From a virus (lineage: Duplodnaviria > Heunggongvirae > Uroviricota > Caudoviricetes): a stretch of 5,163 nucleotides of DNA. A program made the position numbers and the translations under genes. A model generated the notes under the pieces. The model was given only the letters and a program-made list of their open reading frames with translations, ran no database searches and was not told where the DNA came from. Numbering within the stretch: the first letter of the stretch is position 1; every line of letters starts with the position of its first letter. The stretch lies in IMG/VR virus record IMGVR_UViG_2547132270_000001, one strand, 5' to 3'. Positions 1-4,877 of this stretch are shown one piece after another.

Positions 1-2357
1 CCCAACAACCCCCCGCCGGTGGCATAGCCGCGCATCAGCCGGTAAAGATTCCCCACGCCAATCCGGCTGGTTGCCTCCTTCGTGAAGACAAACTCACCAC
101 GGTGAACAATCCCCGCTGGCTCATATTTGCCGCCGGTTCCCGTAAATCCCCCGGTCGCAAAATGGAATTTCGCCGCAGCTGCCTGAATGGCTCTACCGCC
201 TGACGCGGATGCGCCGCCACCAACAGCTCCGCCAATGGCGCTGCCGATACTCCCGACAATCCCCACCATTGCCTGCTTTAGCAGAATTTCTGTCATCATG
301 GACAGCACGGAACGGGTGAAGCTGCGCCAGTTCTGTTCACTGCCGGTCAGCATCGCCGCCATATTCTGTGCAATACCGTCAAAGGTCTGCGTGGCTGCAC
401 TTTTTACCTGCGACATACTGTCCGTGGCGCTCTCTTCCCACTCACTCCAGCCGGACTTCAGGCCTGCCATCCAGCTCCCGCGAAGCAGGTCTTCAGCCGC
501 CCAGGTCTTTTTCTGCTCTGACATGACGTTATTCAGCGCCAGCGAATTATCGCCATACTGTTCCTTCAGGCGCTGTTCTGTGGCTTCCCGCGCTGCCTGC
601 CGGTCAGTAAGCCCCCGGTTTTTCGCCTCAATGGCTGCCCGTTTTGCCCGTTGTTGCTGTGCGAACTTATCCGCCTGCTGCGCCAGCGCATTCAGGTGCT
701 CCTGATACGTGACCTTATCGCCAAGTACAGCCAGCTGGCGTTTGTACTCCAGCGTCTCATCTTTATGCGCCAGCAGGGATTTCTCCTGTGCGGACAGCTG
801 GCGACGTTGTGCCGCTTCCTCCAGTACAGCGAACTGACTCTCCGCCTTCCACAAATCCCGGCGCTGCTGGCTGATTTTCTCATTCGCTCCGGCATGCTTC
901 TCCAGCGTCCGGAGTTCTGCCTGAAGCGTCAGCAGGGCCGCATGAGCACTGTCTTCCTGACGATCGCCCGCAGACACCTTCACGCCGGACTGTTTCTGCT
1001 TTTTCAGCGTCGCTTCATAGTCCTTTTTCGCCGCCGCCATCAGCGTGTTGTAATCTGCCTGCAGGATTTTTCCGTCTTTCAGTGCCTTATTCAGTTCTTC
1101 CTGACGGGCGGTATATTTCTCCAGCGGCGTCTGCAGCCGTTCGTAAGCCTTCTGCGCCTCTTCGGTATATTTCAGCCGTGACGCTTCGGTATCGCTCTGC
1201 TGCTGCGCATTTTTGTCCTGTTGACTCTGCTGTTCAGCCTTCTTTCGGGCGGCTTCAAGCGCAAGACGGGCCTTTTCACGATCATCCCAGTAACGCGCCC
1301 GCGCTTCATCGTTAACAAAATAATCATCCTTGCGCAGATTCCAGATGTCGTCTGCTTTCTTAAACGCAGCCTCTGCCTTAATCAGCATCTCCTGAGCGGT
1401 ATCAGGACGACCAATATCCAGCACCGCATCCCACATGGATTTGAATGCCCGTGCTGTCCTGTCTGCCCAGGTCTCCAGCGTGCCCATGTTCTCTTTCAGG
1501 CGGCGGGTCTGGTCATCAAACCCTTTCGTTGCGGCCTCGTTCGCCGCCTGCAATGCCCCGGCTTCATCTCCGGAACGCTGCAACTGAGCAACATACGCAA
1601 TCTGCTCCGCCGTCACGTTATGGAACTGACGTGCCATCGCTGTCAGTCCCGACGTCGGGTCTGTGGTCAGCTTCCCGAAGGCTTCAGCGACCTTGTCCAC
1701 CTCCACGCCGGATGCAGAGGAGAAACGCGCCACACTCTGGCTGATCGCCTCAAACTGCTCACCACCACGCACGCCGGCATTCACCAGCGCCGTAAGAGAC
1801 TCGCTGGTCTGGTTAAACGTCAGCCCTGCCGCCTGCCCGGCTCTGGACAGGACCAGCATACGATCTGCCGTCAGACCCGACTGATTGCCGGAAAGGACCA
1901 GCGTTTTGTTGAAATCGGACAGGGTTGAGTTGCCCTGATACCAGGCATACGCCAGCGCACCGGTCGCCACCGCCAGCGAGGTGGCCCCGACCATCGGCAG
2001 GGTGATCGCACCGGCAAGCCCCCTGAACATGGGGATCAGCCCGCCGAAGGAGTCCTTCACCTGACCACCCTGTTGCAGCAGGATCAGCCACGGACTTTGC
2101 CCGCCTGCAAGCTGCGTGGCCACATCGGTGAACTGCGCAGGCAGCATACGCATGGCGGCTTTATACTGCCCGACGGAAATCCCCGCTTTCTGTGCAGCCA
2201 GCGCCTGTCGGCTCAGCGACTGTTCAACGACTGCCGCTGTTTTTTTCGCATCACTTTCCGTACCGGAAAAATGACGCCTGACTCTGGCCATCTGCTCGTC
2301 AAATCTGGCCGCATCCAGACTCAAATCAACGACCAGATCGCCTACCGGTTCAGCCAT
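1..2357 (-). CDS. H: Tail tape measure protein (lambda gpH-like); 3'-truncated by window edge, about 785 N-terminal codons present
   Basis: Minus-strand ATG at 2357-2355 preceded by GGAGGAG (2370-2364). Hand translation gives MAEPVGDLVVDLSLDAARFDEQMARV..., matching lambda gpH. Spot translation at about 1220-1520 gives FDDQTRRLKENMGTLETWADRTARAFKSMWDAVLDIGRPDTAQEMLIKAEAAFKK... and at 1-62 gives ...IGVGNLYRLMRGYATGG..., both in the same frame as the start codon. No minus-strand ORF in this frame is reported in the track between 1 and 2357, consistent with one uninterrupted frame that lacks an in-window stop. Confidence 0.9.
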   Translation of the reverse strand, partial: MAEPVGDLVVDLSLDAARFDEQMARVRRHFSGTESDAKKTAAVVEQSLSRQALAAQKAGISVGQYKAAMRMLPAQFTDVATQLAGGQSPWLILLQQGGQVKDSFGGLIPMFRGLAGAITLPMVGATSLAVATGALAYAWYQGNSTLSDFNKTLVLSGNQSGLTADRMLVLSRAGQAAGLTFNQTSESLTALVNAGVRGGEQFEAISQSVARFSSASGVEVDKVAEAFGKLTTDPTSGLTAMARQFHNVTAEQIAYVAQLQRSGDEAGALQAANEAATKGFDDQTRRLKENMGTLETWADRTARAFKSMWDAVLDIGRPDTAQEMLIKAEAAFKKADDIWNLRKDDYFVNDEARARYWDDREKARLALEAARKKAEQQSQQDKNAQQQSDTEASRLKYTEEAQKAYERLQTPLEKYTARQEELNKALKDGKILQADYNTLMAAAKKDYEATLKKQKQSGVKVSAGDRQEDSAHAALLTLQAELRTLEKHAGANEKISQQRRDLWKAESQFAVLEEAAQRRQLSAQEKSLLAHKDETLEYKRQLAVLGDKVTYQEHLNALAQQADKFAQQQRAKRAAIEAKNRGLTDRQAAREATEQRLKEQYGDNSLALNNVMSEQKKTWAAEDLLRGSWMAGLKSGWSEWEESATDSMSQVKSAATQTFDGIAQNMAAMLTGSEQNWRSFTRSVLSMMTEILLKQAMVGIVGSIGSAIGGAVGGGASASGGRAIQAAAAKFHFATGGFTGTGGKYEPAGIVHRGEFVFTKEATSRIGVGNLYRLMRGYATGGGLL

Positions 2358-3188
2358 ACCGGACTCCTCCTGCGATCCCTTCTGATACTGTCATCAGCAT
2401 TACGTCATCCTCCGTCATGTCCGCCACATCCGGGGAAGCGGGGATAACTTCATTCCCGTCCGGACCAAAACTAACACCTCCGGCAAGCCCTGCCGCTTTC
2501 TGCATCAGCACATCATCTTCAGGCTCTTCGTCAGCCTCGCGCCGGTTCAGCAGACTGAAATCCAGCGGATGCATATCCGGATCGCTGAAAAACAGGCTGA
2601 GCACGGTGTACGTCAGCCCGGAAAAGTGCATATCCAGCAGAACATCATGAAAATAATGGGTACTGTAAAAGCGGTGCCAGTCGGCATACTCCGTGGATGA
2701 CATCCCGGCAAGCATGGCGCGCCAGTCGGGTCGCCCCATCTCACGCGCCAGTTTCAGGGCAAAACTCAGCTCACCGTCGAACACTTTCCCGCAGAAACAG
2801 GCTCTGCAGGCCCGGCGTCCTCTGCCTGTTCAGGGGCATCATTCACCACAAACTCATACATTCCGGATAGCCGGTACACCACGTTTTCAGCATGAGAAAT
2901 TGCCTCCGTGGGCCAGGTGGTAAGCACTTCCTGCTCAATCTGTTTAACGGCTTCATTCATGGACGGCTGCTTTGTCTTCTGAGGATGGTTATGCCACAGG
3001 GACATCGCCACCACAAAAGCACCGGTTCTGATGGCGTCTTCCACAGTAAACTTCCGGTTGCTGTCTGACTCCGCCTGTTCTGCCTGCCGTTTCATCAGGG
3101 CGAGATGCTCAATACGCTGCAGGGCTGACAGTTCAGAAAGCGTGACGGTCACGCCGTTATGTTCAAATGATTCGGTTTTCAGGAACAT
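2350..3188 (-). CDS. T: Tail assembly chaperone G-T fusion, produced by programmed -1 ribosomal frameshift at 2790-2784
   Basis: The -1 frame is open from the slippery site to TGA at 2352-2350 (track ORF 2350..2784, whose 'M' is really a GTG codon read after the shift: GGG AAA GTG TTC GAC GGT GAG CTG = G K V F D G E L). It has no independent start or SD and its end overlaps the H start by 8 nt, as in lambda. Confidence 0.85.
2364..2370 (-). promoter_or_regulatory. Shine-Dalgarno (GGAGGAG) for H, lying inside the 3' end of the T frame
   Basis: Minus-strand GGAGGAG, then 6-nt spacer, then ATG at 2357. Confidence 0.6.
2766..3188 (-). CDS. G: Tail assembly chaperone gpG (zero-frame product)
   Basis: 140-aa ORF, ATG at 3188-3186 with GGAG SD (3200-3197) 8 nt upstream. 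It starts 15 nt after the V stop, the same gap as in lambda. It ends ...AGKCSTVS with TGA at 2768-2766 and carries the slippery heptamer near its 3' end. Confidence 0.9.
   Translation of the reverse strand: MFLKTESFEHNGVTVTLSELSALQRIEHLALMKRQAEQAESDSNRKFTVEDAIRTGAFVVAMSLWHNHPQKTKQPSMNEAVKQIEQEVLTTWPTEAISHAENVVYRLSGMYEFVVNDAPEQAEDAGPAEPVSAGKCSTVS
2784..2790 (-). promoter_or_regulatory. Programmed -1 frameshift slippery heptamer G GGA AAG (X XXY YYZ)
   Basis: Plus strand 2784-2790 is ctttccc, so the minus strand reads GGGAAAG. Zero-frame codons are GCG-GGA-AAG (A-G-K of gpG); the -1 frame reads GGG-AAA-G and continues into the T frame. Confidence 0.85.
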
Positions 3189-3196
3189 CGCTGATT

Positions 3197-3200
3197 CTCC
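3197..3200 (-). promoter_or_regulatory. Shine-Dalgarno (GGAG) for G in the 15-nt V-G spacer
   Basis: Minus-strand TAA-TCC-GGAG-AATCAGCG-ATG. Confidence 0.55.
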
Positions 3201-3203
3201 GGA

Positions 3204-3944
3204 TTAACTGGCGGTGACGTTGATTTCTGCAACCGCAGCAAACTCACCATTACCGGATACGACCGGAATGTTGACCTTGCCTGCAGCAACACCTTTCACG
3301 GTGATGGTCATACCACTGACCGACACGGTGGCTTTTGTTTTATCCGCAGACACCGCACGGAAGCTCTTGTCGGTTGCGCCTTCCGGCTGGAATGCCACGG
3401 TCAGCGTCGTGCTCTGCCCTTTAACCACCGAGGTGCTGGCAGGCGTCACGGTCATGCCGGTTGCCGCTGTTACCGTGCTGCGATCTTCTGCCATCGACGG
3501 ACGTCCCACATTGGTGACCTTCACCGTACGGGTGATCACTTCCTTCGCTGTCACCGCCTTACCGATGCTGCTGACCCAGCCGCGGAACACATCGACCGTG
3601 CCGTTCGGGAAGCGGATTTTATAGGCACGGGTATCACCTTCATTAAACCACGCCAGCAGCGCCTGCTGCCCCTGCTCTCCGGGCATCCACGCCAGCGTGA
3701 AGCTGGTATCTCCGGCTGACTTCTGCCCCTGTCCGGTCGCGGTCCAGTCCGCATCTTCATCATCGAGATAACTGTCGTCATAGGACTCAGCGGTCAGTTC
3801 GCCGGGCGTCAGGTCTTTAACTTTAGCCAGACGCGACCAGTCAACGTCTGAAAGCGGATTCGCATAAGGGTCACCGCTCCCCTTATAAACCCACAGGGTG
3901 GTCCCGGCACCTTTCACCGGCATTGTAGGATTTGGTACAGGCAT
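3204..3944 (-). CDS. V: Major tail tube protein gpV (246 aa) with C-terminal Ig-like domain
   Basis: ATG at 3944-3942 with GAGGA SD (3953-3949) 4 nt upstream, overlapping the U stop. Translation [36 protein letters not shown]... matches lambda gpV. The track's upstream ATG at 3974 has no SD and lies inside U. TAA stop at 3206-3204. Confidence 0.9.
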
Positions 3945-3953: not shown

Positions 3954-4347
3954 ACATTTCATAGGTAATGACATAAGTCAGATCGGCTGAACTCCACAGG
4001 CCCGCATCATCGTCGCGCCGGTAGTCATAGCCACTGGCCACCATACTGGTGATCAAATCTGACAGTGCCGGGATATCGCTCATCACCGGATAAATCCGGG
4101 ACTCCATCCACGAATCAAGCTCTGAATCCGGCACCTGAGCAGGCAGGAAAACTTCGATATGCAGCTCTGCCTGCCAGGTATCGCTGTCCAGCTCTTCGCC
4201 CGTGTATTCAGCGCCGGTGAGATAAACGGCAACTGCCGGAAAATCCGCCTCATCAAAAACAGCGGGGCGACCATCAAAAAGCGTCGCCCCGGTGTCATGC
4301 TTCTCCAGTGCATCCAGTACGGCTGCACGGAGTTCAGTATGTTTCAT
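3952..4347 (-). CDS. U: Tail terminator protein gpU (131 aa)
   Basis: [70 protein letters not shown]... matches lambda gpU in sequence and length. Start ATG 4347-4345 overlaps the Z stop TGA 4346-4344 (ATGA). Confidence 0.92.
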
Positions 4348-4877
4348 CGCTTTATTACCATTCTCAGTTGATGCTGCAGCGCATAGCCCAGCTCTTTCGG
4401 AAGACGTTCACGCCGTATCCGTTCAATATTCTGTTTAAATGCCGTGGTCAGCGGCACCGCCATCGGAATTTTCACCACATCAATGGGGTAACGGTTTTTC
4501 CCGGCCACACGCTGCATGACATGCCACCGGCCATTTTTTAATCGCTGGATAAATGCCCGCTGATAACGATGCCGACCGGCCCGTAGCGTACTGTTGGGAC
4601 GACTTCCGGTGATCCGTATCCCCAGTTTGATGACAGGTAAATCACCGCGATTAACAATGATTTTTACGTGCGGATTTTTGACCGTGGCCTTTTTCTGTCT
4701 GGCCCTTTCCTTTACCAGTTTTCGCCGCACCTTTGTCTCACGGGCAACCTGTGACGCCGACTGATTCATTGCCGTTGTGGCCACGCGGTTAATGGCCATT
4801 GCGGAGGCACCGGGCACCGCCGTTTTGCTGATACGGCTGAGATTTTCAACGGCCTGCTCAAGACCTTTTATAGCCAT
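4344..4877 (-). CDS. Z: Tail completion protein gpZ (177 aa; shorter variant)
   Basis: ATG at 4877-4875 with AGGGGG SD (4887-4882), 11 nt after the FII stop. N-terminus MAIKGLEQAVENLSRISKTAVPG... and C-terminus ...[69 protein letters not shown] match lambda gpZ as I recall it; the central region differs. Confidence 0.88.
   Translation of the reverse strand: MAIKGLEQAVENLSRISKTAVPGASAMAINRVATTAMNQSASQVARETKVRRKLVKERARQKKATVKNPHVKIIVNRGDLPVIKLGIRITGSRPNSTLRAGRHRYQRAFIQRLKNGRWHVMQRVAGKNRYPIDVVKIPMAVPLTTAFKQNIERIRRERLPKELGYALQHQLRMVIKR

Follow-up and report, generated by a model that had tools for sequence, protein, structure and literature searches.

The programmed -1 frameshift that gives phage lambda its gpG and gpGT proteins was reportedly described by Levin, Hendrix and Casjens in 1993 and by Xu, Hendrix and Duda in 2004, 2013 and 2014. 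Here we analyse a stretch of 5,163 nucleotides (nt) from the IMG/VR virus record IMGVR_UViG_2547132270_000001 (called the window throughout, meaning that stretch at its full length), in which the tail genes G and T lie side by side with a heptamer GGGAAAG near the end of G. Judging from the sequence and its relatives, this site is almost certainly a lambda-type frameshift signal for the tail assembly chaperones G and G-T.

In lambda, gpGT results from -1 slippage at G_GGA_AAG, and the gpG:gpGT ratio of ~30:1 is critical to the assembly of tails (PMC5009743, PMC3296357, PMC7618472). About 96% of the ribosomes remain in the 0 frame while ~4% slip (PMC3296357). The tape measure protein H is the binding partner of lambda gpG and of the G portion of gpGT, that of the T portion is the major tail protein V, and neither chaperone is present in the virion (PMC5009743, PMC3296357, PMC4493119, PMC7618472). 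When tRNA-Lys(mnm5s2UUU) is hypomodified, the shift goes up and the phage yield goes down, and thiolation of this tRNA modulates the gpG:gpGT ratio (PMC3296357), which places the event on the ribosome. The lambda site belongs to the X_XXA_AAG heptamers, the class that is most proficient in E. coli (PMC4066793).

Anatomy of the site and identity to lambda

The G/T pair of the window is flanked directly by V upstream and by H downstream, all on one strand, the minus strand (a point left unstated in the preliminary description of this DNA). The elements of the site are as follows.

2766..3188, minus strand: gene G, tail assembly chaperone gpG, 140 amino acids (aa), the predicted 0-frame product of most ribosomes (open reading frame (ORF), PF06894, TIGR01674).
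2784..2790, minus strand: slippery heptamer G_GGA_AAG, which encodes Gly-Lys in either frame and is the predicted slip site (reading phase, identity to lambda, conservation).
2766..2829, minus strand: zone of 64 nt in which the G frame is open and so is the -1 (T) frame; a shift is required here for G-T (frame analysis).
2350..2784, minus strand: T segment in the -1 frame, 144 codons and a TGA (PF06223, TIGR01715).
join(3188..2784, 2784..2350), minus strand: predicted G-T fusion of 279 aa, with base 2784 read twice (conceptual translation).

By script search, the window has a single GGGAAAG, which occupies 2790..2784 of the minus strand. The 3' end of G reads ...TCT GCG GGA AAG TGT TCG ACG GTG AGC TGA, which phases the heptamer as G_GGA_AAG and leaves five sense codons between AAG and the G stop, the stop being the sixth codon after the heptamer. 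Read in the -1 frame, the same bases give GGG AAA GTG TTC GAC..., with 144 sense codons following GGG AAA before a TGA at 2352..2350. The ATG of H lies at 2357..2355, and the T stop and the H start share ATGGCTGA, an overlap of 8 nt. Conceptual translation of the fusion predicts a junction at which ...PVSAGK is followed by VFDGEL..., within the junction peptide ...VSAGKVFDGELSFALK. The preliminary description had given the same picture, with an in-phase heptamer ahead of the G stop, a -1 frame open for about 144 codons to a stop overlapping the H start by 8 nt, and a G-K-V-F-D junction (here ...VSAGKVFDGEL), and on each of these points our coordinates agree with it.

Profile searches detected both the G and the T domains within the fusion. 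G matched PF06894 (4.9e-59) and the equivalog TIGR01674 (2.4e-64, 215 bits vs a cutoff of 74), while T matched PF06223 (2.1e-14) and the equivalog TIGR01715 (phage_lam_T; 2.9e-55, 185 bits vs a cutoff of 77). These family matches of T exclude the possibility that the T frame is non-coding. A PDB sequence search with the G-T fusion returned no solved homologue.

Base-by-base alignment with lambda showed that the 88 nt at 2720-2807, comprising the heptamer together with 17 nt upstream and 64 nt downstream, are identical in the two sequences. The window shares with lambda the V-G-T-H order, the G_GGA_AAG motif, its distance to the G stop, a T of 144 codons and the 8-nt T/H overlap. Outside of the identical segment the two differ only as alleles do: G is 96.2% identical at the DNA level and T 99.3% identical as a protein, with 16 nt substitutions in G, five in T and none in 2720-2807. 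Unlike lambda, the window has a C at 2719 (T in lambda), a change that is synonymous in T and that converts a G.U pair to G-C in a predicted downstream hairpin (alignment pair 45:72); also unlike lambda, its neighbouring Z gene is a mosaic variant. We do not expect the allelic differences to have a functional effect. The gene order, the equivalog matches and the identity at the site all fit the lambda tail assembly chaperone architecture that had been proposed for this pair from the letters of the window.

Because the 88 nt at the site are identical, we transfer the lambda mechanism, including its low fixed ratio, to this element, and do so with high confidence on sequence grounds; the slip, its rate and the functions of the proteins are taken from the literature, while the anatomy, the homology, the site identity and the conservation of the architecture were observed here. 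During a small fraction of passages (~4% in lambda), both tRNAs would re-pair one base back, on GGG and AAA. Ribosomes that have slipped would miss the G stop five codons on and read the 144 T codons to give the 279-aa G-T, and those that have not would give the 140-aa gpG, with T translated only as a C-terminal extension of G. The tape measure protein H would then be coated by gpG and by the G part of gpGT, with the T part recruiting the major tail protein V.

Two points limit this reading. For this particular element the claim is drawn from homology and from a site context identical to that of lambda, and the bare heptamer is unremarkable, with one copy observed vs 0.76 expected and at least one copy in 110 of 200 shuffles. 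As GGGAAAG is no rarer than chance would have it, the heptamer by itself is no evidence, and we relied on phase, position and conservation instead. Heptamers of the X_XXY_YYZ type in phase with the reading frame occur only twice among the 1556 codons of the window's genes, and GGGAAAG falls inside the 64-nt two-frame zone, with 146 open -1 codons counted from the heptamer. What is not random about the site is its phase and position, the fact that its -1 ORF is a real protein domain, and the retention of the architecture in diverged relatives; nothing in the sequence evidence opposes a lambda-type signal. The other in-phase heptamer, A_AAA_AAT in Z (4533-4539, minus strand), has 19 open -1 codons, does not belong to the efficient E. 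coli class and is probably there by chance.

The site is identical to that of lambda and matters little as a find: recoding at lambda G/G-T is already textbook knowledge, and the window is a close lambda allele in a lambda-like prophage or phage.

The slip motif in diverged relatives

A scan of viral contigs with the window's own T gave only loci that were 99% identical, and it was replaced by a tblastn divergence ladder and by scans with diverged T peptides. The ladder supplied 12 diverged phage loci, in which the identity of T to that of the window runs from 96% down to 35%, and after three further scans with diverged T peptides a total of 234 loci with 61 distinct 101-nt segments could be parsed (the Providencia seed gave two loci). 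In all 12 of the ladder loci T lies in the -1 frame relative to G and the two frames overlap by 25-73 nt; inside the overlap there is a motif in phase with G that ends in A_AAG. Phage 21, Stx2a and PhiR5_1 have GGGAAAG as this motif, an Stx1 phage, an Stx2d phage and the Stx2a phage Stx2_499 have AAAAAAG, and GGAAAAG is that of mEp237, mEp043, an Enterobacter phage, Gifsy-1, mEp460 and a Providencia phage.

The larger set gave the same result. At the homologous position we found GGAAAAG in 143 loci, GGGAAAG in 87, AAAAAAG in three and GGGAAAA in one, so that a slip-prone motif stands in phase at this position in 234 of 234 loci, and the conservation that the preliminary description had claimed for the frameshift site was borne out. 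The element that stays constant across the loci is the A-site lysine codon (A_AAG in the G frame in 233 of 234), while the P-site half is variable. The sole locus lacking the A-site AAG is on a viral contig of an mEp043-like clade (L204, 698-704), where G_GGA_AAA replaces G_GAA_AAG.

The lambdoid relatives (phage 21, the Stx phages including Sakai ECs1801, mEp237, mEp043, Gifsy-1 and mEp460) therefore resemble the window in having T in the -1 frame, a short overlap, A_AAG at the homologous codon and an N-terminal T peptide that is kept from the slip site on. They differ from it in the P-site half of the motif: the Stx1 and Stx2d phages have A_AAA there, and the groups of mEp237, mEp043 and Gifsy-1 have G_GAA, which is non-canonical. 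G_GAA_AAG also occupies the homologous site in more distant relatives (L090-L095; among the 143 loci of 234 that carry it, for example, L093 at 895-901 and L095 at 883-889). It is not a canonical X_XXY_YYZ heptamer, because the P-site tRNA-Glu would mispair after the shift, and it has been described as less slippery (PMC6924986). Only one codon or none lies between AAG and the G stop in the clades of Gifsy-1, mEp460 and Providencia, as compared with five in the window, and there a stop next to the weaker G_GAA_AAG may be a different way of tuning the rate.

Sequence context and the slip rate

In E. coli reporters, the slip rate measured for GGGAAAG was 0.277% when no stimulator was present, 3.8% when that of IS911 was supplied and 43% when that of IS3 was (Sharma 2014), and comparison of the bare heptamer (~0.3%) with lambda (~4%) implies an approximately ten-fold stimulation by context. 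We infer, as an unproven point, that the sequence context, possibly including a stem 8 nt downstream, raises the rate by about that factor. The dnaX and IS3/IS911 (insertion sequence) signals are like the window in using the X_XXA_AAG class and the shift-prone tRNA-Lys(mnm5s2UUU) (PMC5009743, PMC4066793). They have, however, defined stimulators (an upstream element resembling a Shine-Dalgarno (SD) sequence, and a strong downstream hairpin or pseudoknot) and far higher rates, as the 43% obtained for GGGAAAG with the IS3 stimulator illustrates, while the site shared by lambda and the window has a low rate (~4%, in lambda), no upstream SD-like element and a downstream element that is a weak candidate. 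The 20 nt that precede the GTG of the -1 frame, reaching 14 nt upstream of the heptamer (GAGCCUGUUUCUGCGGGAAA), form an anti-SD duplex of only -4.3 kcal/mol. The downstream candidate is as follows.

2706..2776, minus strand: predicted RNA structure, a candidate stimulator, in which an outer stem (2776..2769 with 2713..2706) encloses two hairpins (fold).

The predicted outer stem starts 8 nt downstream of the heptamer; the fold, computed on 101 nt beginning with the heptamer, has an energy of -41.5 kcal/mol (z = -1.9). As a sub-mechanism, and not as a rival to the frameshift, it could be that the heptamer alone drives the shift and that the stem is a by-product of the conserved GC-rich coding sequence, and we lean slightly towards this account. 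The region of the stem encodes the most conserved motif of T, LAREMGRPDWRAML, which speaks for a by-product. At the same time, a heptamer acting alone sits poorly with the gap between 0.277% and ~4% (PMC3296357; Sharma 2014), and the published survey of frameshift clusters counts gpG G_GGA_AAG_4 among the true cases, scored 'SD N' and 'structure Y', the ECs1801 cluster being 'structure Y' as well (Sharma 2014 Table S4).

The comparative evidence is divided in the same way. In an alignment of 13 sequences, pair 16:84 switches from G:C to A:U to C:G, with the 3' side using a synonymous third position, which argues against a by-product. With 61 sequences, percent paired was 88.6 vs 84.5, and the paired fraction and covariation score were above all 500 shuffles, the consensus structure having been derived from the same sequences as the covariation counts. 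A covariation test on these 61 sequences that is robust to relatedness was not significant (both-side changes were reached in 69 of 500 shuffles, pair types in 10 of 500), and this favours the heptamer alone, as does the lack of any match in an Rfam scan of the whole window at E of at most 1.

We also randomised synonymous codons in seven clade representatives, holding the T peptide and the dual-coded part fixed. Native codons folded better than their randomisations in the window (z of -2.2), mEp237 (-2.7) and Stx1 (-1.4), that is, the result was positive in three of the seven representatives, and there the outer helix had a probability of ~1.0 in the native sequence vs ~0.1 in the randomised ones (1.00 vs 0.14 for the window). 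This speaks against a by-product; on the other side, the helix was not predicted in the mEp043, Gifsy-1, mEp460 and Providencia representatives. Levin et al. reportedly saw a modest downstream effect that was not attributable to a simple hairpin.

Taken as a frameshift stimulator, the downstream stem predicted here is suggestive only. One could go further and propose that the lambda-type site carries an uncharacterised branched RNA stimulator, which would explain the ten-fold gap, would owe its persistence in the lambda, Stx and mEp237 clades to the choice among synonymous codons, and in more distant clades would give way to a stop beside the weaker G_GAA_AAG; we put this forward tentatively, thinking it rather unlikely.

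Start of T, its annotation and the neighbouring genes

A frameshift would be unneeded if T were an independent gene with a start of its own, and an in-frame GTG is indeed present at 2784..2782, the first -1 codon after GGGAAA. It is from this codon that a stand-alone T of 144 aa is annotated in J02459 (coding sequence (CDS) at 10115-10549), in RefSeq NZ_CP067311 (L237, 2525-2959) and in many phage records. We nevertheless consider an independent T very improbable. The anti-SD duplex of the 20 nt before the GTG (-4.3 kcal/mol, as above) is no better than the window background (mean -5.0), while the values for Z and H are -10.8 and that for G is -7.3 kcal/mol. Moreover, GTG stands right after the motif only in lambda and phage 21. 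Ten of the 12 diverged loci have GTC, GTT, GCA, GCC or GTA in its place, with the peptide around it still conserved.

Other starts fare no better. In the T frame, conservation of the peptide (xELxFxxxLARE[MF]GRPDWR) sets in at the slip site, the TIGR01715 alignment begins at T residue 5, upstream of the first T-frame ATG, and that ATG (T residue 16, codon 18 from GGG; 2739) is a Phe codon in six loci. Upstream of the slip site the T frame is open by only 2-21 codons, with no conserved start. The literature gives gpGT as the product and lists no free T (PMC5009743, PMC3296357). With no SD, a GTG that is not conserved and a peptide that is conserved from the slip site, translation must enter T from G, and T, as far as its sequence tells, has no credible independent start. 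The preliminary description had held that T has neither a start codon nor an SD of its own; the SD part stands and the start-codon part does not, given the GTG, so that its conclusion that T lacks an independent start is retained for a slightly different reason, namely that the GTG has no SD and is not conserved.

Least probable, and close to negligible, is that RNA polymerase slips on GGGAAA and that mRNAs with a one-base deletion or a two-base insertion give G-T, since the runs are only three G and three A, far shorter than known transcriptional slippage tracts. Homopolymer runs can cause such slippage, of which certain secretion-system and IS genes make use (PMC5009743), and the AAAAAAG variant of the Stx phages has six A's, but what is conserved, the codon phase (233 of 234 loci have A_AAG in the G frame), is relevant to tRNA re-pairing and not to a polymerase, and host tRNA-Lys modification mutants alter the gpG:gpGT ratio (PMC3296357).

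Returning to programmed frameshifting on the ribosome, the value of the present case lies in annotation. GenBank J02459, the RefSeq pipeline and many phage records list a stand-alone T, while the correct product would be the joined G-T of 279 aa, and among the 16 records that we inspected only one, phage 21 OL657228, has a joined G-T CDS.

The other genes of the window are as follows.

Minus strand: FII (Pfam Phage_attach).
4344-4877, minus strand: Z (Pfam Minor_tail_Z).
Minus strand: U (Pfam Phage_tail_U).
3204..3944, minus strand: V, major tail tube protein with a C-terminal immunoglobulin-like domain (Phage_TTP_12 PF16461, 1.4e-70; Big_2, 3.8e-20).
1..2357, minus strand: H, tape measure protein, cut by the end of the window (TMP_2 PF06791, 1.5e-70; Tape_meas_lam_C PF09718, 3.3e-21).

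All of the long ORFs with homology in the window are on the minus strand; opposite G and T the plus strand has mechanical ORFs, such as 2417..2650 and 2693..2923, for which there is no support. As a whole, the window is 96.2% identical to the FII-Z-U-V-G-T-H tail block of lambda (J02459 7691-12886). It matches over at least 80% of its length in 88 phage records, and 3685 of 5426 complete E. coli genomes have prophages that match it. A promoter and terminator scan of 2250-3300 gave no promoter-like site and two terminator-like sites, which is at chance level. The SD of H is an AGGAGG at 2371..2366 (anti-SD duplex of -10.8 kcal/mol). Besides the 8-nt overlap of the T stop with the H start (ATGGCTGA), the Z stop and the U start overlap by 4 nt (ATGA, 4344-4347, minus strand), both being typical of translational coupling.

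One of the matching records, MW057783.1, is labelled as a C. jejuni phage ('Campylobacter phage CJLB-4'), uses lambda gene names and matches the window at 96.2% along 5.1 kb. Its identity and bit score against the window equal those of lambda itself, which suggests that it is lambda sequence under an unexpected host label.

The mosaic Z variant mentioned above encodes 177 aa vs 192 aa in lambda, with a central segment of ~45 residues replaced and 15 residues fewer. It is 78% identical to lambda at the nt level, as compared with 95-99% for the adjacent genes, and the same variant is found in other E. coli prophages at ~95% identity. Finally, the mechanical ORF of V starts at an ATG at 3974 (256 aa) and overlaps the end of U, while the lambda start corresponds to the ATG at 3944 (246 aa, MPVPN...), where the SD is better (-6.1 vs -4.5 kcal/mol). 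The start of V differs among records: HK630 has the long form, and in J02459 the label says 256 while the coordinates give 246.

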